This document shows, piece by piece, positions 54,340 to 63,958 of a DNA stretch of 64,000 nt; positions within the stretch are counted from its first letter, which is position 1, and each line of letters starts with the position of its first letter. Source of the DNA: Marinicella sp. (GTDB taxonomy: Bacteria; Pseudomonadota; Gammaproteobacteria; Xanthomonadales; Marinicellaceae); contig OZ246001.1 of assembly GCA_965230295.1 (NCBI GenBank), positions 1,312,001 to 1,376,000 on the forward strand, read 5' to 3'. A program made the translations under genes and the position numbers. The notes under the pieces were generated by a model that did not search any database, was not told where the DNA came from, and worked only from the letters and a program-made list of their open reading frames with translations.

Positions 54340-56235
54340 ATGGAACCTACCGGTTGGGTCAAAGACGTTTACGATTGGATTCAAGCCAACCCCAACTGGA
54401 CAGGTATCCTGATATTTCTGTTTGCCTTCACTGAATCTATCTTACTGGTCGGCATCGTTTTTCCAGGTGCTGCATTTTTGGTCAGCCTCGGTGCTTTGAT
54501 TGGTCTGGGTATTTTGGACTTTTACACCGCCTGGATCTGGGCTTCCATGGGCGGGTTTGTGGGCGACGGGATCAGCTTTTGGATCGGTCATAAATACAAG
54601 CAACGCTTGTTAAAAATGTGGCCAATTTACAAATTTCCCGATTTAATAGCCAAAGGCCAAGACTTTTTTAGGAAATACGGTGGTATCAGTGTTTTTATCG
54701 GCCGTTTTGTAGGTCCGGTCAGGCCCATCATCCCGGCAATTGGCGGCATGATGGGGATGGGCGTTAAACGATACATCATCATCAGCGCGGTGGCTTCCAT
54801 CTTATGGGCACCCTTCTACTTACTACCAGGCATGTTGTTTGGATCGGCCATGGAAACCATGGCCAAAGTGGCTGTGAAAATGTCCGTCCTGGTGGTGGTC
54901 TTGGTGGTACTGGTTTGGGTCGCCTACTGGGTCATCAATATCTTCTATCAGCTGTTGATGCCAAGAACCTATCGCTGGTTAAGTAATTTATTGGCCTGGA
55001 CCCAAAGGCACCCCACTCTAGGGAAATTAACTTCAGGGTTGGTCGATCCCAGACAACCGGAAAAAGGCTCACTGGCGATGTTGGCGGTGCTGTTACTGGC
55101 CTTCTTGGTGGCTGCCATATGGTTTGCTGCGATCAACGACACCTTGGTGCGCTGGAACCAAAGTACGGAATCCTTCTTTTATGCATTCCATAATCCATGG
55201 ACCGTCCTGCCGATGAAATGGTTGTTGTTCCTGGGTCATGACCTGAGTGTGTTACTCATCACTTTAACGGTCGCCCTGTGGTTTTTATACCGCCGCATGA
55301 CTCTGGTGTTGAACCATTGGTTACTGCTGTCGCTGACTGCCTATGTCTTCTCTGTGCTGATCAGCAAGGCAGGACATGAAGAATGGCAGTTCTTGGCTTC
55401 TCATCATGTTTTCTGGTTCACCGCAGTGTCTTGTTTTTGGGCCATTTTGGTGGCAGGTGCCTATCCAATAAAATTCCGCAGCTGGCCTTATGTACTGTCT
55501 GGTGTGTTGATATTACTCCATGCTTTTGCCACCTTGTTTTTCTATCAAATGAACCTGACGATGGTGGTGCTGTCGATCCTGTCAGGCAGCATTTGGTCCA
55601 TGTTGATCGGTATCGCATTTCGCACCCGGAATCGCAAACAATTCCTCGGACTGCCGGTTAAAATCACCTTCATCACAACGGCCATGTTGGCGCCATTGGT
55701 GACCTGGGTCTTTTTTTCCAGTTCCACCGAGGTCACCAAACCTGCCTGGCTACTAGAACAATCCAGTGAAAAAACCACCGGATGGGCCAACACCGGTGAA
55801 CAAGAATTGGACATCACCCTGGTGGCCGAGTTGCCTGTGCTCGAGCAACAATTGAAGGCCACAGGCTGGCAATCCATTCAGCCCAGAACCTGGGGCAATG
55901 TTTACCAAGCACTGCGGGTTGAACCGGAAGCAGCCGAACTGCCATTATTTTCATACGTTCACAGGGGTGAGGTGGAACAGCTGTTGATGAGTAAAACCAC
56001 GGACGATGAATTGATCGCCTTGCGAGTTTGGCATGAACAAACTGCAGCTGATGATCAGTTCAAAGGCACCCTAACCAGACACCTGCGGGACACTGATCTG
56101 TATTTATTTAACCACTGGGGTTTTAAAAATAATGTCAGCGATAAATCCAGCCTCACTGAATCATTGAAAAACAGCCATTTCATCATCGACTTCATGGCAG
56201 ATGATTCTCTGTTAATCAGGCAAAAAAGAAAATGA
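54340..56235 (+). CDS. DedA/VTT protein with degenerate PAP2-like and LssY-C-like regions
   Basis: AFTES..GIVFPG, GDGISFWIG, FIGRFVGPVRP; multi-TM middle; soluble C-terminus. Confidence 0.85.
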   Translation: MEPTGWVKDVYDWIQANPNWTGILIFLFAFTESILLVGIVFPGAAFLVSLGALIGLGILDFYTAWIWASMGGFVGDGISFWIGHKYKQRLLKMWPIYKFPDLIAKGQDFFRKYGGISVFIGRFVGPVRPIIPAIGGMMGMGVKRYIIISAVASILWAPFYLLPGMLFGSAMETMAKVAVKMSVLVVVLVVLVWVAYWVINIFYQLLMPRTYRWLSNLLAWTQRHPTLGKLTSGLVDPRQPEKGSLAMLAVLLLAFLVAAIWFAAINDTLVRWNQSTESFFYAFHNPWTVLPMKWLLFLGHDLSVLLITLTVALWFLYRRMTLVLNHWLLLSLTAYVFSVLISKAGHEEWQFLASHHVFWFTAVSCFWAILVAGAYPIKFRSWPYVLSGVLILLHAFATLFFYQMNLTMVVLSILSGSIWSMLIGIAFRTRNRKQFLGLPVKITFITTAMLAPLVTWVFFSSSTEVTKPAWLLEQSSEKTTGWANTGEQELDITLVAELPVLEQQLKATGWQSIQPRTWGNVYQALRVEPEAAELPLFSYVHRGEVEQLLMSKTTDDELIALRVWHEQTAADDQFKGTLTRHLRDTDLYLFNHWGFKNNVSDKSSLTESLKNSHFIIDFMADDSLLIRQKRK

Positions 56236-57710
56236 AACTGTTGCTATCCATCCTAATTCTGGCTGCCGCCTCTGTGGCAGTGATTTATACGTTCAGAACA
56301 CCAGCGCCTGAAGTGTTTCATGCTGATTTTGTCGGCAGTGAAGTCTGTGGCGACTGCCATTGGATCAATTATGATGCCTGGAAAAAATCACCACACCACA
56401 ACATTGCGAGGTTACCTGCAAGTGATTCAGTTGTGGGTGATTTCTCAGATGGTGATTACTATTTCCCGCAACAGGATTTAGAAGATGAGAATGAATTGCC
56501 AGCAGCAAAAATGTACCAGCGTGCCGGGGAGTTCTTTATGGCCCTTCGCGACATAGGCACTGACAGTTATTCTGAATTTAAAATAGCCAAAGTGATAGGT
56601 TATCAATACCGACAAACCTATTTAACACAAGAAGAAGGTGGTGTGCTTAGGCGGCTGCCAATCCAATGGTCTGTACCACGTCAGGACTTTTTTGCTTATT
56701 GGAATGAACAAGAACAATCACCACAATCTGTGCATGATTTATGGGAGCAAATGAAGCCCCTGAACTCAGCCTGGAATTTATATTGTGCCAGGTGCCATAC
56801 CACCAACTTACAGGAATACAGCAAAGATCAGGCACACACCCAAGCCAATGTAGAGTGGACAGAAATTGGTGTGGGTTGTGAAGTTTGCCATGGCCCAGGC
56901 AGCAAACATGTGGACTACATGAATGGACACCCCATCAACCGCTTGGCATCATGGTTCGACCAAAACCTGTTTCAAAAGACAGCCCCTTTTATCATCAATG
57001 CCGCCAACCAACAACAAGGCTTTGCCTTGAGTGTGTGTGCCCGTTGCCACGGGGCAGACATATTCCGCAAAAGACAACCTTTGTACCGCAACTACAAACC
57101 AGGGTTTGATGCCAACGGCAACCTCAATGATTTGTCCCCCTATTTTACCGAAGCACCCCTGGAACCTGGCAGAACCTTCCCAACCATCGAGGTCTGGGAA
57201 GACGGCCGACCCAAAGGGCTGGGAACCTTGTTTCGGTCTTTTGCTGATTCCAGCCACTACCAAGCCACTGACATGCGCTGTTATACTTGCCACGACCCGC
57301 ACAACAACAAAAAACCGGCATCTACAGGACTGTTAAGACCAACTTCACAGAGCAATGAGTTTTGTATGAGTTGCCATGCACCAATTGCTGAAAATCCAGA
57401 CGCACATACAAAACACAAAGCGGGCAGTAAAGGCTCCTATTGCTATGATTGTCATATGCCCAAAAACATACTCAATCAAGTCGCCGGCGTGCCGCATTTT
57501 GTTCGCAGCCACAACATGGGATCAATCCCTAATCCCTTGTTATCAAAACGGATGGGCACCTCAAAGTCACCCAATGCCTGCCTTGAATGCCATCAAGACC
57601 AAAGCAACGATTGGGCCATCAATCATTTGCGTGATTGGGGCATGGATAAACACCTGATAGAAACAGATTTACACCTGCAGCGCAACGCCACTTCCGATAC
57701 GGTCCACTGA
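56232..57710 (+). CDS. Multiheme c-type cytochrome (8 CxxCH)
   Basis: CGDCH, CARCH, CEVCH, CARCH, CYTCH, CMSCH, CYDCH, CLECH; N-terminal anchor. Confidence 0.9.
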   Translation: MKLLLSILILAAASVAVIYTFRTPAPEVFHADFVGSEVCGDCHWINYDAWKKSPHHNIARLPASDSVVGDFSDGDYYFPQQDLEDENELPAAKMYQRAGEFFMALRDIGTDSYSEFKIAKVIGYQYRQTYLTQEEGGVLRRLPIQWSVPRQDFFAYWNEQEQSPQSVHDLWEQMKPLNSAWNLYCARCHTTNLQEYSKDQAHTQANVEWTEIGVGCEVCHGPGSKHVDYMNGHPINRLASWFDQNLFQKTAPFIINAANQQQGFALSVCARCHGADIFRKRQPLYRNYKPGFDANGNLNDLSPYFTEAPLEPGRTFPTIEVWEDGRPKGLGTLFRSFADSSHYQATDMRCYTCHDPHNNKKPASTGLLRPTSQSNEFCMSCHAPIAENPDAHTKHKAGSKGSYCYDCHMPKNILNQVAGVPHFVRSHNMGSIPNPLLSKRMGTSKSPNACLECHQDQSNDWAINHLRDWGMDKHLIETDLHLQRNATSDTVH

Positions 57711-57715
57711 CCCCT

Positions 57716-58468
57716 TCAACGGGGACTGATGAATTTAACGGTCAAATCTTTTTCAAACACATCCTGGTATCTTTGATAGGGCAGCACTTCAATCTGAGCC
57801 AAAGCCAACATCACTTCTGACGCCAGTTGTTGGTCTATGAAGCAGTCTTCCTGCAACTGGCTTTTAAAAGGTAAACCACCAGGCATTTGTTGGATGTCTA
57901 CGGTGCAAGTGCCCGAAATTTGATTCTCAACCCAGGCATTTTTAAACACCAGTACCATTTGATTCAGGTACCTGGTTAAGGTGGGATTTTCGTTATCCAA
58001 GTATTGCTTTTCGTTGTCGTTGGTGAAGGTGGCATAGAACAGGCTGCGGTAAACTTGATCAGCAAAGATCTGACTAGAAAGTTCTAATTGGTTGGGGTTC
58101 AAAATGACACTGCTGAAGGTCGGCTGCAATCCCAGCGAGTCAGAAATCGTAAGCCGCAAAGTCAATGTCTGGTCATTTTCATACAAGTCTCCTTGTAACA
58201 CATAGCGGATACCAACCAACTGCCAGGCCAACATGTTGTCCACATCTTCCGGTGCATCATAACGGAACGGCATACTGAACAAACCGGTGCTCGACAAAGC
58301 CTGGATGATGTGATTTTCTACTGTTACCGCAGGGCTGAATCCATCACCATGGTAAGTGAATGGTAACGCCACAAACTGAACCGGCTTACTTTGATCTCCC
58401 ACCACCAACAACTCAACCTCTGCTTGTGCAAGCAATGGTAAACACAACATCATAAGGACCCATTTCAT
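57716..58468 (-). CDS. Periplasmic protein: TolB N-terminal-like domain plus TolA C-terminal-like domain
   Basis: AQA-EVELLVVG..ALPF..LSSTGLF..AWQLVGI..FADQVY; then Y..KNAW..CTVDIQQMPGG..C..D..LPY..VFEKDLTVKF. Confidence 0.72.
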   Translation of the reverse strand: MKWVLMMLCLPLLAQAEVELLVVGDQSKPVQFVALPFTYHGDGFSPAVTVENHIIQALSSTGLFSMPFRYDAPEDVDNMLAWQLVGIRYVLQGDLYENDQTLTLRLTISDSLGLQPTFSSVILNPNQLELSSQIFADQVYRSLFYATFTNDNEKQYLDNENPTLTRYLNQMVLVFKNAWVENQISGTCTVDIQQMPGGLPFKSQLQEDCFIDQQLASEVMLALAQIEVLPYQRYQDVFEKDLTVKFISPR

Positions 58469-58584
58469 TCCCTCATTTTATCACAGCCTTTAATGACGTA
58501 AGCTGTCTTGGATTATTTGCCGACTGAGCAGCAGAAATCACACATTTCGGGTGATACAATGGGCATTTTTCAAAACTCAACATC

Positions 58585-59439
58585 ATGGTTAGACTCAGAA
58601 TCGGCGGCGTGCCTGAACATTACAACATACCCTGGCACATGGCACGAAAATCAGGGGCCTTACAAGCAGCTGGCATCAAACCGGAATGGACCGACTTTTA
58701 CGAAGGTACCGGCGGTATGATCCAAGCCATCAAGAATGATGAACTTGATGTGGCCATACTGCTGACTGAAGGGGCCATTTCAGGCATATCGAGAAGCGCC
58801 AATTATAAAATTGTGTCTTTTTACACCGATTCACCGATCATCTGGGGCATCCATGTTCCGGCAGAATCTGACATCACCGATGTCAACGAAATCTACCACC
58901 ACCGCTATGCCATCAGCCGTTATGGCTCTGGCTCACACCTGATGCCTTACGTCCATGCCAGACAAAAAAATTGGCCGGTTCATAAACTACAATTCAGGGT
59001 CATTAACAATTTAGATGGCGCCAGAATGGCTTTTCGCGAAGACCAGGCCGATGTGTTTTTCTGGGAAAAGTTCACCACCAAGCCGTACGTTGATAATGGC
59101 GAGTTCAGACGCATTGGCGAATGCCCAACACCATGGTCTTGTTTTGTGGTGGTGGCCAGCCACCAGACCTTAACGTTACATGCTGACAAAGTAAAAGCCT
59201 TGCTTGAGGAAACCTTCAAGCAAGCCCAAAACTTATACAACGATCCTGATCGTGTGGACATCATCTCAAAGCAATTTGATTTACTGCCTGAAGACGTCGA
59301 AGAATGGTTATCATACACCCGATGGGGCCGAAAAATTGAACTGAAAAAGGATGTGTTGGTCGAAACCACTGACACATTGAAAGATTTGGGGCTGGTGTAT
59401 CAAAAATTCGACCCTAAAAATTTATACCATGAATTTTAA
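58585..59439 (+). CDS. Type 2 periplasmic-binding-fold protein (NMT1/SsuA-like), no signal peptide
   Basis: GGVPEHYNIPW, GTGGM, LTEG, ISRYGSGSHLM, FFWEKFTTKP, TPWSCF. Confidence 0.8.
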   Translation: MVRLRIGGVPEHYNIPWHMARKSGALQAAGIKPEWTDFYEGTGGMIQAIKNDELDVAILLTEGAISGISRSANYKIVSFYTDSPIIWGIHVPAESDITDVNEIYHHRYAISRYGSGSHLMPYVHARQKNWPVHKLQFRVINNLDGARMAFREDQADVFFWEKFTTKPYVDNGEFRRIGECPTPWSCFVVVASHQTLTLHADKVKALLEETFKQAQNLYNDPDRVDIISKQFDLLPEDVEEWLSYTRWGRKIELKKDVLVETTDTLKDLGLVYQKFDPKNLYHEF

Positions 59440-59460: not shown

Positions 59461-60825
59461 ATGACCAAAGGATGGTTGATAAAAACAGCATTGATTTTAT
59501 TAACAGGTCTTTTGATAAGCCATGTATTCTCTTTATGGCCTGAAAGAAAACCAATCGAAGATCGGAGTCAACATAACCTTACCGTCAGCCAGCCTAATTT
59601 AGTTACCTTTCAGAATCCAACATCACGCCGCAAAACCAAACCTGAATCCATTCAACCAAAACAACTGGACTCAGTCGAGTCAGAACCGGTTTCAAACATT
59701 GACACCAATCAATCGACAGAAAACACCCAAGCTTTAAGTTTCCTTGCTGTTTACCGCATGTATCGACAGTGGCGAACATGTCGTGATTTTCATGACATCA
59801 TCAATGACACAGTGGTCTATGATGCCCGCAGTGAACTCGAAAACAGAGCAAGGCGCATCAACAACAAAGCCAACAACGCCCCATCAGAAGTACAAATTGC
59901 TGCCTTACACAACCATGCCATCATGTGTGTTCACATCTTTCAACAAGCCCAAAAAATGGACCTGCCAGATGCAGGGTTGAAGCCTGGTTCATCTTTATCT
60001 GAACCCCACTTAACCAGTAAGCGATTTTTACGTCATTTGCGCCAGTTGAAACCACAAAATGAACAAGAACAGGCCATAGCCAACGTTTTGCAGCTGACCC
60101 ATCAATGGAACGAAGCCTTCAAAACAGTGTTACAAGTGTTGGCCGGGAATGACAGCCAAAACCCGGATTTGATCGCAGCGTTGAATCAAGAGATACAATC
60201 ATTGCGCACAGAACAATTTAAATTGCTCCGACTGCAACAAGGCACCGATAAAAAGGATGAACCCAACGAAGAACTTTTCAAGCTTTTCTTGCAAATTGAG
60301 CAGAAAGAAAAAGAAATGCAGAAACTGTTGGTGGTGGATGAAACACAATTGAAATCTGCTTTGAGTGAATTTTCTGCAAGCAACAACACCTTGTATGATC
60401 AACTGACATCAAATAATCCGGATGTGTTTTACGAAGCACACACCACACTTGAGCGCAGCAGGAACTTGACTGATCTTGGCTTAAATATGCATAAAGAAAA
60501 CGAACTGAGAGAAACGAAAAGACTATTCGTGGAATACGTGCCACCTGAAGATATCTTGCTGCAATCCATGGAGTTCAACGAACCGATATGGCTGCGCTCT
60601 TTAATTCCGTATGCCACCCAATTATACACTTGTGAACTGGGCGCCGATTGTGGCCCTGACAGCGAGTGGATCAAGCACCACTGTTTCAATGGTTTCATGA
60701 CCTTGAATCCAAAAAGTTGTGATTCAGACCTGCAAACCTATTACCAGCAGCACCTGCTCAGTCCCAACCAGTGGCAAGATGTGCAATTGATATTGATGGC
60801 CATCAGGAATCTGTATGAAACTTAA
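59461..60825 (+). CDS. Membrane-anchored hypothetical protein, array type A1
   Basis: N-terminal TM, coiled coil, YATQLYTCELGADCGPDS motif. Confidence 0.85.
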   Translation: MTKGWLIKTALILLTGLLISHVFSLWPERKPIEDRSQHNLTVSQPNLVTFQNPTSRRKTKPESIQPKQLDSVESEPVSNIDTNQSTENTQALSFLAVYRMYRQWRTCRDFHDIINDTVVYDARSELENRARRINNKANNAPSEVQIAALHNHAIMCVHIFQQAQKMDLPDAGLKPGSSLSEPHLTSKRFLRHLRQLKPQNEQEQAIANVLQLTHQWNEAFKTVLQVLAGNDSQNPDLIAALNQEIQSLRTEQFKLLRLQQGTDKKDEPNEELFKLFLQIEQKEKEMQKLLVVDETQLKSALSEFSASNNTLYDQLTSNNPDVFYEAHTTLERSRNLTDLGLNMHKENELRETKRLFVEYVPPEDILLQSMEFNEPIWLRSLIPYATQLYTCELGADCGPDSEWIKHHCFNGFMTLNPKSCDSDLQTYYQQHLLSPNQWQDVQLILMAIRNLYET

Positions 60826-61696
60826 ATTGACGATCCCGATAATGACTTTGTTTGGTCTCTGGCTGTTTTGGCTACTGCCAACCGACACTGAACTGTCACA
60901 ACAGCAGCAATCATCCACCCCCAATAAAATCAACCAACAAAAGGCTGAACCCACAACGCCAGAAAAGCCATCTACTACACAAGCTGTGCAGCTGGCCACT
61001 ACTGATAAGCAATTGGAAGCCATTCTTCAGGAGATACTTCCCATGCGCTTCAGCACTGATCCTTATATTGAATTGCATGCGTTAAGACAGGTGCTGTGGG
61101 CTTGTCATAAAGACTCTGAACCGATTGAATTGTTTAAAGTCTATGGTGAAATTCAGCAACCTCAACTCGATTGGCAAAAACGATTACAAGAAGTTTGTCT
61201 GAGTCATCGCCATCAGTATCCAACACTGCTCACTGAAATACCTGAACGCGAATGGCTCGCCAAAATAGAACCCCAAACATCTTTGGGGCACCGCATTAAA
61301 AACAAATCCAGGCTGTTGGACTCCAAAACCAGAAGGCAAGAAAATTTATATTTAATCAAAGCGGGAATCAACACCGAAAACAGTGCGCTGATCTTGAGAA
61401 ACAACCGAATGCTGGAGTACATCATGACCGACCCAACTGATTTTGCTCATGTGATCCAAAGTCAAGACTGGCGATATACCTACCAGGTGGTTGAACTGGC
61501 AACCACTTTGATAGCCTGTCGATATCAAAACGGCTTGGGCTGTGCGCCTGAGTCAGGTTTAATGATCGGCTATTGTGCACGCCGACCGGATTCATGTGGT
61601 TTCGATTTCATCACCTGGTTTCAAAACAATACGTTACCGGGCATGCAACTGGATGTAGAATTGATGCAGCAATATTTATTGGAATCCAATTCATGA
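60815..61696 (+). CDS. Membrane-anchored hypothetical protein, array type B1
   Basis: N-terminal TM; FSTDPYIEL; ACRYQNGLGC..C..CGFDF..TLPGMQ. Confidence 0.85.
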   Translation: MKLKLTIPIMTLFGLWLFWLLPTDTELSQQQQSSTPNKINQQKAEPTTPEKPSTTQAVQLATTDKQLEAILQEILPMRFSTDPYIELHALRQVLWACHKDSEPIELFKVYGEIQQPQLDWQKRLQEVCLSHRHQYPTLLTEIPEREWLAKIEPQTSLGHRIKNKSRLLDSKTRRQENLYLIKAGINTENSALILRNNRMLEYIMTDPTDFAHVIQSQDWRYTYQVVELATTLIACRYQNGLGCAPESGLMIGYCARRPDSCGFDFITWFQNNTLPGMQLDVELMQQYLLESNS

Positions 61697-63045
61697 AAAG
61701 CCTGCGGTCTTTTGTTTTCTTGTTGACAGTCATGATACTGCTATTGGCGCTATTTTGGTGGTCAGAAAGAAAGCAGGGTCAGCAACGGTCATTGAGCCAA
61801 CCCAATGTGGTATCCATGCAGACCGATGAGCCTGCCTCAACAGAAGAATCGGCATCCAATAAGCCAGCCACAACCCAACAAAGCGATGACACAATCAACG
61901 ATACAGCCATTGCCGAGCAGAACGAATCGACTCCTGAGAAAAAAGAACTCACTTATTTGGAGGTGTATCGGATGAATCGGCAGTTTGTTGCTTGCCAGGC
62001 TGAAATTTATCATTTAATCGAAGACCCCAATGACGACCCCATAAAAGTTTTACATAACAAACTGAATCGTTTAAGTGGTCAAAAACAAGTGCCATTAACG
62101 CCCACTCAACAGCAGATCAGCTCAGTAAACAAGCACCAGGAATCCTGCAGTCTGCTGTTAGAAACCATCAGAATCATGGATTTATCCCCTGAAATCACTG
62201 AGCAGGACAACAATGACAAGGCATTCAACCAAACCAAAGAACAACTGTATAACTTACTCAACGAAACCAAGCCAAAAACAACCAAAGAACAATCCATAGC
62301 AGCAGTGTTACAACTCAAAACACAGTGGCAAACACTGTTTAATGAAATCCTTGCCATATCAGAAGGTAGCGATCAAAAGAACAGTGATGCCATTGCTGAT
62401 TTGAACCGACAAGCCGGTCAATTAAAAACCACAATCAATCAACTTGTTGAAGAATTGAAACTGGCTACCGATACCGAATCATTGCAATTGGAATTGAATG
62501 AAGTTTCTAAGCAGTACGACCGGATTCAAGATGAAATAAAAGGTTTGTATTGGGTTGACACCGATGCACGAGATCAGTCCATTGCCCATTTCAATGTCAT
62601 CAATGATCAGCTTTTCAATCGTTTATCCAGTTTGGATCCAGATGTGTTTTACGAAACCCAAATGACTTTGGAAAAAAACGAGAACATCAAATATTTTGGT
62701 CATGCGCCCTATAAGGACATTGGTCTTTATGAGGCCAAAATGCCTTTTGTTGAATACGTTTCCCCAGGAGATGTGGTGATGCAAATATTGGACTTGCATG
62801 ATGATGAATTGTTTCGTTTGGTGATTCAATATGCCACCCAACTCTATCTTTGTGAATTGGGCGCCGACTGTGGGCCCGGCAGCACATGGATCAAGTACTA
62901 CTGTTTTCAGAGTTATAATGAAATTGACGCCAGGAGTTGTGATTTGGATTTGACCAGTTATTTACAAAACCACAGACTCAGCGAAAACCATTGGCAAGAT
63001 GTGATTTGGGTGCTTGAAACATTGCGAGGCCTGTATGGCCAATAA
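61693..63045 (+). CDS. Membrane-anchored hypothetical protein, array type A2
   Basis: Paralog of A1 (PDVFYE, FVEYV, YATQLYLCELGADCGPGS, WQDV); start set at ATG 61693. Confidence 0.85.
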   Translation: MKSLRSFVFLLTVMILLLALFWWSERKQGQQRSLSQPNVVSMQTDEPASTEESASNKPATTQQSDDTINDTAIAEQNESTPEKKELTYLEVYRMNRQFVACQAEIYHLIEDPNDDPIKVLHNKLNRLSGQKQVPLTPTQQQISSVNKHQESCSLLLETIRIMDLSPEITEQDNNDKAFNQTKEQLYNLLNETKPKTTKEQSIAAVLQLKTQWQTLFNEILAISEGSDQKNSDAIADLNRQAGQLKTTINQLVEELKLATDTESLQLELNEVSKQYDRIQDEIKGLYWVDTDARDQSIAHFNVINDQLFNRLSSLDPDVFYETQMTLEKNENIKYFGHAPYKDIGLYEAKMPFVEYVSPGDVVMQILDLHDDELFRLVIQYATQLYLCELGADCGPGSTWIKYYCFQSYNEIDARSCDLDLTSYLQNHRLSENHWQDVIWVLETLRGLYGQ

Positions 63046-63958
63046 AATCTGGGTGCTGTTGTTACTTGCCTCTATCGGCTTGTTGTTGTGGGTGACCCTG
63101 TGGCCGACATCAGTATTCGAGCCCAACCCAACGAACCACCTCGACAGTGACTTGAAACCGGTTTCAACACAGTCAGATGTTGTTGCAGACGTTTCTGAAA
63201 AAACAGCGCAAACCATTGCACCTGAAACCAAAAACACGCCATCTGATGGGGCTGAAAAACTCGATCCATGGCAACAAAAAGTTCTGCAAGAAATCGACTC
63301 ACGCCTGTTCAGCGACGACCCTTATGTCGAGCTGTATTCATTGGAGTTTCTCGTTGGTCAGTGCCGAGATCAAGACATAGTTGAGCGATTGTTTGTAGGT
63401 AAAGGCCCCTTTTATCAATCACAACAGCAACTGGCCAAGAAGCTTCAACAACAATGCGCTGAACTGAGAACACAATACCAGGAGTATTTGAGTTTCCCAG
63501 AACATGAACAATTGATCCAGGCTTTTGAGCCGAACAGTCGCATGGGTCGATTGTTGAAACAAGTGAACAACCCCAATTTAACCCCATTGGATCGCAGTGA
63601 ATTGTCATCATCGATTCTAAAACAAGCCATCAAAGAACGAAACAGTTCGAGCTTGATGTACTCGGTGTTCATTGCCCGCTTTGGTTCATTGACCACCTTA
63701 CCCCTGGCTGGGGTGATCAATTCAAATGATCAAGATTATATCAATCAAATGTCCAGCATGGCTTTGATGATGATGGCTTGCCAGTACCAAGGTGGCCGCA
63801 CCTGTGAAAGCACCTCTTTTTACATGATCATCATGTGTTCACAACAGCCCGCTGCCTGTGGGTTGGACTTTCCCAGTTGGTTCCAAAAAACCACTTTGCC
63901 AGGCATGCAACGGGATGTGGAAAAGTTGATGACTTTTTTCTCACAATACGGCCAATAA
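63035..63958 (+). CDS. Membrane-anchored hypothetical protein, array type B2
   Basis: Paralog of B1 (FSDDPYVEL, ACQYQGG..C..C..CGLDF..TLPGMQ); start set at ATG 63035. Confidence 0.85.
   Translation: MANKIWVLLLLASIGLLLWVTLWPTSVFEPNPTNHLDSDLKPVSTQSDVVADVSEKTAQTIAPETKNTPSDGAEKLDPWQQKVLQEIDSRLFSDDPYVELYSLEFLVGQCRDQDIVERLFVGKGPFYQSQQQLAKKLQQQCAELRTQYQEYLSFPEHEQLIQAFEPNSRMGRLLKQVNNPNLTPLDRSELSSSILKQAIKERNSSSLMYSVFIARFGSLTTLPLAGVINSNDQDYINQMSSMALMMMACQYQGGRTCESTSFYMIIMCSQQPAACGLDFPSWFQKTTLPGMQRDVEKLMTFFSQYGQ

Follow-up and report, generated by a model that had tools for sequence, protein, structure and literature searches.

The 64,000-nucleotide stretch of Marinicella sp. DNA analyzed here (positions 1,312,001 to 1,376,000 of contig OZ246001.1, assembly GCA_965230295.1; referred to below as the window) contains, at 57716..58468 of the minus strand, a gene for a small protein that seems to combine parts of two interacting Tol-Pal components. 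This locus raises the question of whether such a protein is real and, if so, what it might do in the periplasm. The initial annotation, made from the sequence alone, had proposed a single fusion of the TolB N-terminal domain with the TolA C-terminal domain. We found that the encoded protein, for which we use the working name X, represents a genuine and new combination of domains that are themselves known, i.e. a signal peptide, a TolA-box-like strand, domain D1 of TolB and domain III of TolA (TolA-III), and that it is homologous to TolB and TolA at the domain level.

The list of open reading frames (ORFs) confirmed one frame spanning exactly this interval, with an ATG start and 250 codons. The full-length model of X generated with AlphaFold2 (AF2) from an alignment of 29 rows had a mean predicted local distance difference test score (pLDDT) of 77.7 and a predicted template modelling score (pTM) of 0.73. 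Across the 29 aligned members of the X family there are 60 invariant columns, and the most conserved stretch of the protein is the interdomain linker (residues ~135-172).

The TolB-like D1 domain

The assignment of the N-terminal half to TolB was borne out by both sequence and fold. The Pfam TolB_N model (PF04052) aligned residues 20-110 of X with profile positions 3-99 of 106 (E 0.075), at a score of 13.6 bits, which lies under the gathering cut-off of 22.4 bits. The same model was matched at E≤1 by all 29 aligned family members (best 3.6e-5), and a precomputed PF04052 hit is carried by one of the 56 homologues of X. BLASTP against the genome's own TolB gave an E value of 3e-4 over residues 15-153. 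A phmmer search of the Protein Data Bank (PDB) with the single X sequence returned nothing meaningful; with the family profile, the TolB of A. baumannii was the best of four sequences (E 0.013), and one TolB was matched across 401 genomes of the order (E 1.7e-11, residues 5-144).

In a Foldseek search with the AF2 model of X, ranks 1-16 were all occupied by TolB (best E 2.5e-8). A VIA-align search, which is independent of Foldseek and covered 48,161 chains, placed TolB chains 7mx5_B (Z 12.5, root-mean-square deviation (rmsd) 2.2 Å over 113 residues) and 1c5k_A (Z 12.4) on model residues 27-167, with other D1-like folds (CT253, PelC, HpaA, LpoB and others) trailing at Z ≤9.4. Chains of the PelC, LpoB, HpaA, TraT, PqiC and LptE types likewise come after TolB in the fold lists. 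The D1 domain of X closes with a long helix (125-148).

The only other TolB_N match in the genome (G000:C1 2888042-2888821, corresponding to L002 1360-2139; E 4.9e-4) was considered as a paralogue of X and rejected, as it encodes a CsgG-like lipoprotein of 259 amino acids (aa) with a Gly-rich loop, belonging to the same fold clan as TolB_N.

Signal peptide and TolA-box-like strand

Inspection of the N-terminus of X revealed a basic start, a hydrophobic core and an A-x-A motif ahead of the mature residue Glu17, a pattern kept in the 29 members. No lipobox was found in the signal peptide by inspection, and the Cys residue lying inside it is not conserved across the family. From these features, X would be exported to the periplasm via a Sec signal, with cleavage before Glu17.

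In TolB, residues 22-34 bind TolA-III by parallel β-strand augmentation, in which three consecutive hydrophobic residues are essential; the interaction is weak (dissociation constant 40-250 µM), and the binding of Pal sequesters this strand between D1 and the propeller (PMC7066135). In the texts available, structural views of this TolA-TolB handshake contain a TolB peptide only.

The Pfam TolB_N model begins at the TolA-binding strand: its position 1 corresponds to residue 2 of the mature TolB encoded in this genome, and residues 18-24 of X fall on positions 1-7 (Leu20 on position 3). The mature proteins in a set of 28 TolB N-termini from the order start with hydrophobic-Glu/Thr-Ile-Asp/Glu-Ile-Ile/Val-x-Gly, followed by a loop and then by Pro-Ile-Ala-Val-Val-Pro-Phe. 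The counterpart in X reads Val-Glu-Leu-Leu-Val-Val-Gly, a loop, and Pro-Val-Gln-Phe-Val-Ala-Leu-Pro-Phe, i.e. a hydrophobic-Glu-hydrophobic-x-hydrophobic-hydrophobic-Gly strand with a loop to Pro29 that is two residues shorter than in the TolB proteins of the order. The string correspondences with TolB suggested at the outset, including that of the mature strand, held when checked against the genome's own TolB, the A. baumannii protein and these 28 N-termini.

The strand ranks among the most conserved parts of the N-terminus of X: in the 29 members there is no variation at L20 and G24, and conservation reaches at least 90% at L21 and V23. The three hydrophobic residues that follow one another in the strand align with the positions reported in PMC7066135, as far as its available text goes, to be essential for TolA binding. 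AF2 predicted a strand at residues 18-23 with moderate confidence (pLDDT 56-77).

The TolA domain III-like C-terminal domain

The relationship of the C-terminal half to TolA was recovered by several routes. BLASTP aligned residues 188-246 of X with residues 198-256 of the genome's own TolA (E 4e-7), and hhalign of the X family against 15 TolA-III sequences of the order gave a probability of 98.8% (E 5.2e-17, 93 columns). An exhaustive phmmer search of 1.84 billion representatives returned 14 proteins at E≤0.001, of 74-311 aa. Seven are family members or fragments; the other seven (P0062-P0068) match only residues ~155-249 of X, where all of them carry Pfam TonB_2 and/or TolA, six above a curated cut-off. 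P0068 is an ordinary TolA with an anchor, a charged domain II and domain III. With its residues ~157-247, the family profile also matched TolA-sized frames in most genomes of the order (E 1e-7 to 1e-13).

When residues 150-250 were folded alone, the pLDDT rose to 91.4 and the domain consisted of a helix (162-178), two strands (187-193 and 202-205), helices (207-224) and a final strand (241-247). Foldseek ranks 1-9 for this domain were all TolA domain III (best 2x9a_B, E 5.5e-5, template modelling score 0.69), with the C-terminal domains of HasB and TonB coming next. VIA-align of the full-length model with TolA-III gave Z 10.2 (rmsd 2.0 Å over 86 residues, model residues 160-249) and, for the second match, Z 9.5. 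The fold initially proposed for the last ~85 residues was upheld, and its length was not, the domain comprising ~93 aa (158-250).

Columns containing W, C, Q-x-P-G-G, C, L-P-Y, V-F and the F of the last strand show little or no variation between X and TolA. The two cysteines, Cys188 and Cys209, are invariant both in X and in the TolA proteins of the order and bracket the Q-x-P-G-G hairpin; they are a putative disulphide pair.

TolB_N was matched by the whole family in spite of the sub-cut-off score of X itself; in the protein scan, neither Pfam TolA (PF06519) nor TonB_2 (PF13103) matched X at E≤10. In the genome scan, the Pfam TolA model had a single match at E≤1 in the whole genome, which lies at the X locus and has 12.6 bits (E 0.45). 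X stays under the gathering cut-offs of the TolA and TonB_2 models (25 and 22 bits, respectively). The sole match in the NCBIfam scan was a spurious one (0.22) to a recombinase model. In the ESM Atlas, the clusters nearest X were 'TonB C-terminal domain' proteins (0.93, with only 137-143 features in common), a lead consistent with the C-domain and nothing beyond.

Missing parts and the Tol-Pal genes of the genome

As first read, X has no propeller, no transmembrane anchor and no tol-pal gene nearby. The six-bladed β-propeller of TolB is absent, as the chain ends at residue 250 and residues 158-250 have the TolA-III fold. No longer relative was found: the maximum length in the exhaustive phmmer search was 311 aa, and a search for longer homologues was empty, which is weak evidence. 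There is no membrane anchor, the 16-residue signal peptide being the only hydrophobic segment, with the TolB-like part directly after it. TolA domain II is also lacking, since residues 30-150 form the globular D1 fold; in the TolA of this genome, domain II is rich in Pro, Lys and Glu.

The genome carries a complete set of these genes elsewhere. The genes tolQ, tolR, tolA (262 aa) and tolB (429 aa) are consecutive at G000:C1 1733636-1736700 (L004), ~365 kb from X, which lies at 1.3697-1.3705 Mb of G000 and hence outside the tolQRAB cluster (1.7336-1.7367 Mb). The pal and cpoB genes are found together at G000:C1 2165902-2167130 (L050, L055), ~800 kb from X and ~430 kb from tolQRAB. Downstream of tolB there are a small ORF, a pyridoxal phosphate-type decarboxylase-like gene and an esterase-like gene, and no pal. 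Since intact tolQRAB and pal-cpoB are retained, X represents an additional protein rather than a damaged Tol gene.

The split between tolQRAB and pal was seen family-wide wherever tolB and pal share a contig, X-less genera included. A link between X and this layout was therefore rejected, the split occurring in X-bearing and X-lacking genera alike.

Distribution, selection and phylogeny

The 56 homologues of X (149-280 aa, nearly all ~250 aa) come from Marinicella or marine metagenomes, are unnamed or annotated as 'hypothetical', and are 47-78% identical to it (its own database entry excluded). The family profile was run against the 401 genomes of the order. In Marinicella (genus g1), full-length X was present in 22 of 23 sampled genomes as well as in that of the window, the single miss being a 66%-complete genome. 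It was also detected in single genomes of two sister genera, g3 (E 6e-102) and g5 (E 3e-36). In genera g2 (0/15) and g4 (0/3) of the same family no full-length X was found, only TolA-type partial matches. Distant full-length relatives (P0057-P0060, 28-41% identity) occur in metagenomes. An apparently fused variant in genome G182 was rejected, since its 397-aa frame results from upstream read-through and the real protein is the 255-aa P0060.

The order of genes in 13 named loci was a binding-protein gene, X, a cytochrome gene (in 9 of the 13), a VTT/DedA-fusion gene, hemL and a gamma-glutamyltransferase gene; cross-locus identity of X was 65-75%, versus 69-92% for its neighbours. X is a syntenic core gene of Marinicella. 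The gene neighbourhood was nevertheless rejected as a guide to its function, being conserved within Marinicella only and different in the two sister genera.

Synonymous divergence (dS) was saturated in most of the 91 pairs; for the 12 in which it was usable (dS<3), the ratio of nonsynonymous to synonymous substitutions (dN/dS) of X had a median of 0.114. Median dN was 0.19 for the D1 part versus 0.30 for the C-domain. X is under purifying selection where this is measurable. The occurrence in 22 of 23 genomes plus that of the window, the synteny over 13 loci and the low dN/dS make X look like a housekeeping-type gene. No family of PADLOC-DB or PHROGs matched X at E≤1, and tblastn against 50,697 phage records and 72,556 plasmid records gave no match.

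In an unrooted tree of 36 rows of TolA-III-type domains, the C-domains of X formed one clade (100/100 support) on a long branch. The TolA sequences of the family grouped separately (98/97), among other TolA. The observed domain order of X would result from a putative tandem duplication of tolA-tolB and a subsequent deletion that ran from behind D1 of the first tolB to ahead of domain III of the second tolA.

Features of the locus and neighbouring genes

The positions of X and its parts are collected in Table 1. On one side of X lies a multihaem cytochrome gene in convergent orientation (56232-57710, Pfam) and on the other a Ca3427/NMT1-like binding-protein gene in divergent orientation (58585-59439, Pfam); on these grounds X looks monocistronic. 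A GAGG-type ribosome-binding motif was read directly 5' of the ATG. A consensus scan of positions 57400-58800 gave no promoter-like and no terminator-like site, versus 1.9 and 1.6, respectively, expected from shuffles.

Table 1. Positions in the window of X, its parts and the nearby tandem-pair genes
Feature	Position	Strand	Basis or remark
X, whole coding sequence	57716..58468	-	250 aa + stop codon 57716-57718
Signal peptide (residues 1-16)	58421..58468	-	Sequence and family alignment read by eye
Mature N-terminal strand and loop (residues 17-29), TolA-box equivalent	58382..58420	-	Pfam TolB_N alignment, comparison of TolB N-termini
TolB N-terminal (D1) alpha/beta domain (residues 30-150)	58019..58381	-	Pfam, BLASTP, Foldseek, VIA-align
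Linker (151-161, conserved) and TolA domain III-like domain (~158-250)	57719..58018	-	BLASTP, hhalign, folds
Invariant Cys188 (57905-57907) and Cys209 (57842-57844)	57842..57907	-	Alignment columns, codons checked
Tandem-pair genes	59461-60825, 60815-61696, 61573/61693-63045, 63014-63958	+	

Of 13 related loci, 9 contain the multihaem cytochrome c gene (plus strand); the other four, L011, L012, L014 and L019, lack it, and X there directly abuts the VTT/DedA-fusion gene. In the window, the latter gene (54340-56235, plus strand) encodes a membrane protein of 631 aa with a VTT/DedA match (E 6e-17) and a weak C-terminal match to LssY_C (E 0.003), and this protein is 72-83% identical in all related loci reaching that far.

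Two tandem pairs of paralogous genes occupy positions 59461-63958 of the plus strand and encode proteins of ~450 aa and ~300 aa, each of which has a hydrophobic segment at the N-terminus and, at the C-terminus, a conserved motif rich in Cys. The search against Pfam yielded nothing except a 17.6-bit match to SpoIIIAH in one of them, under its cut-off. Their orthologues in other Marinicella loci are 21-42% identical, versus 85-92% for the adjacent binding-protein gene, and they look like fast-evolving envelope proteins.

Comparison with known systems

X shares with TolB (7mx5, 1c5k, 2hqs) the Sec signal, a mature strand of TolA-box pattern and the D1 alpha/beta domain. It differs in that TolB has a six-bladed propeller with the Pal-binding surface (429 aa, compared with the 250 aa of X) and in that the X gene lies outside the tolQRAB cluster. 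The C-domain has the same fold and the same conserved core as TolA-III (2x9a_B, 1tol, 3qdr, 6s3w, 1lr0), and in both the chain ends directly after the last strand, which is the augmentation strand. In contrast to TolA, X lacks the N-terminal membrane anchor and domain II, and its C-domain is preceded by TolB D1.

The closest natural counterparts of X are secreted TolA-III-only proteins of Lysobacter and its relatives. Like X, they belong to the same order and comprise a signal peptide and one or more free periplasmic TolA-III-type domains; they have neither TolB D1 nor the TolA-box strand, and in the 36-row tree they scatter among TolA and do not group with X. Among them, P0062, P0064 and P0066 are tandem proteins of 266-286 aa and P0065, from Lysobacter, is a single-domain protein of 123 aa named automatically 'cell envelope integrity protein TolA'. 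These proteins look like an undescribed class of free periplasmic modules in the order.

The closest construct is the engineered single-chain g3p-N1-TolA-III (1tol), the fourth-best structural match of X in VIA-align (Z 9.5), in which TolA-III is joined to a strand-donating domain. Unlike X, it is artificial, and its donor is a phage domain which, according to the available text of PMC7391070, binds antiparallel; by analogy with TolB, the donor in X would be of the natural partner type and would bind parallel. Natural TolB-Pal fusions, as well as PorE, which unites the CpoB, TolB and Pal folds, occur in some lineages (PMC12204202, available text). These fusions resemble X in having Tol-Pal components in one polypeptide and differ in that they join parts of the outer-membrane side (TolB propeller, Pal, CpoB).

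A search of the full-text literature, which covered article texts (those of PMC7391070 and PMC12204202 as available), revealed no description of a TolB-D1/TolA-III fusion. This agrees with the earlier impression that the architecture does not seem to have been described.

One further candidate for the architecture of X, P0063 (222 aa, TolB_N + TolA-III), was rejected as a second family. It is a one-member cluster on a 1613-bp ENA contig and joins the first ~73 positions of a canonical TolB_N (E 1.1e-17) to TolA-III; its C-terminal half is 70-84% identical to ordinary Pseudoxanthomonas TolA, and none of the other 120 listed relatives combined the two domains. P0063 probably resulted from chimeric assembly or from a rearrangement that took place very recently; in the latter case, the event could be of the kind that created X.

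Possible functions of X

The TolA-TolB handshake is the point at which proton-motive force is handed to the outer membrane in cell division. Because both binding elements of this handshake are conserved in X, its action as a modulator is the most economical functional reading, and we tentatively favour, at somewhat less than an even chance, a periplasmic Tol-Pal accessory working via this β-strand contact. Every binding event and every physiological effect ascribed to X in this section is one that we infer.

As such an accessory, X would be a soluble periplasmic TolB 'head' (the TolA-binding strand and D1) fused to a TolA 'tail' (domain III). Its N-terminal strand could dock on the TolA-III of the cell, which would make X a second client of TolA, or a competitor, and its C-domain could cap the strand of X itself or hold that of TolB. 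As the propeller is missing, X would not be expected to bind Pal in the manner of TolB. That the strand has preserved the TolB pattern, in contrast to the drift of the C-domain, suggests that the partner of the strand is the conserved TolA-III. The TolA-III-like domain is attached at the place of the TolB propeller, i.e. at the site where TolB sequesters its strand; the high conservation of the linker and the pTM of the whole model suggest that X is a fixed two-domain body.

A more elaborate version, in which X is both a second TolQRA client and a chain link, is doubtful: TolA-III would grip the strand of X, and the C-domain of X would in turn grip an N-terminus, either that of TolB or that of a different protein associated with the outer membrane. 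In this arrangement force, or a brake on force, would be relayed via two β-strand handshakes in series.

Several observations weigh against a role in Tol-Pal. (i) The C-domain is very diverged from TolA (19-24% identity) and its separate, long-branched clade is not nested in the TolA clade of the family; its ligand may therefore have changed. (ii) The gene neighbourhood provides no link to Tol-Pal, and the g3 and g5 copies lie in unrelated contexts. (iii) X is not required by the split layout of the tol-pal genes, as the X-less genera (15 + 3 genomes) have the same one. (iv) The N-terminal strand falls inside the Pfam TolB_N model, and part of its conservation could thus be structural. (v) The 29-row alignment behind the full-length AF2 model is shallow, with an effective number of sequences of ~2.3.

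The first of these points is shared by the strongest rival explanation, that both folds were recruited for a periplasmic task outside Tol-Pal, which we consider unlikely, though not markedly so. The C-domain would then grip an exposed TonB-box-like strand of another envelope protein, and D1 would bind a different partner. The position of the C-domain away from all TolA is consistent with this, as are the many unrelated envelope functions served by D1-like folds (LpoB, PelC, LptE-like lipoproteins and others) and, in the g3 genome, the divergent orientation of the X gene relative to a gene for a TonB-dependent receptor. The secreted proteins with single or tandem TolA-III domains indicate, moreover, that TolA-III is used as a free periplasmic module in the same order. 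However, TolB is clearly the best match of the N-terminal half, well ahead of the other D1-like folds in Z score, and X has retained and conserved the TolB-specific N-terminal strand, which those families lack.

It is also rather improbable that X is a self-contained complex, whose strand binds only its own C-domain, in cis or head-to-tail. X would in this case be a closed TolA-III:TolB-D1 mimic, or an oligomer, with a relevant composite surface and without competition with TolA or TolB. The fusion of two mutually binding partners (Rosetta-stone logic), the highly conserved linker together with the pTM of the model, and the attachment of the C-domain where TolB sequesters its own strand are all in keeping with such a complex. 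Nevertheless, a self-only binder has no obvious selectable function, yet dN/dS is ~0.11, and a strand near the TolB pattern of the order combined with a C-domain far from TolA fits TolA as the partner better.

Less likely still is a decoy role, in which X would protect the cell by capturing g3p-type domains of filamentous phages or Tol-dependent bacteriocins before they attach to TolA-III or TolB. Over-production of periplasmic TolA-III renders E. coli tolerant to colicins and phage, and the best structural matches of the C-domain of X are TolA-III chains from g3p and colicin complexes. According to the available text of PMC7391070, the sheet edges of TolA-III to which the N1 domain of g3p attaches are also those used by colicins. 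On the other hand, X is a core gene at a syntenic chromosomal position genus-wide, it is under purifying selection where measurable, and neither the PADLOC and PHROG models nor the phage and plasmid records yielded a match; a decoy would need neither TolB D1 nor the TolA-binding strand.

Finally, an ORF without function, present by chance or left decaying after a tolA-tolB rearrangement, for which the lack of promoter-like and terminator-like sites in the consensus scan speaks, has a negligible probability and is effectively refuted by conservation (56 full-length or near-full-length homologues, the 60 invariant columns and the dN/dS), besides the confident AF2 folding of both domains and the ribosome-binding motif.

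Significance

X occurs in three genera of one marine family and in a few metagenomic relatives, a narrow range which limits its general importance. Within that range it represents an undescribed Tol-related component which may regulate or extend Tol-Pal. If X were indeed a chain link between TolA and the outer membrane, Tol would be a motor that, as Ton does, serves more than one client, and X would provide a natural single-chain model of a full TolB D1 seated on TolA-III. X is, in addition, a ready-made construct for viewing TolB D1 and its strand on the TolA-III fold. Together with the secreted TolA-III-only proteins, it points to the release of TolA-III from the membrane motor and its reuse as a free module in the periplasm.

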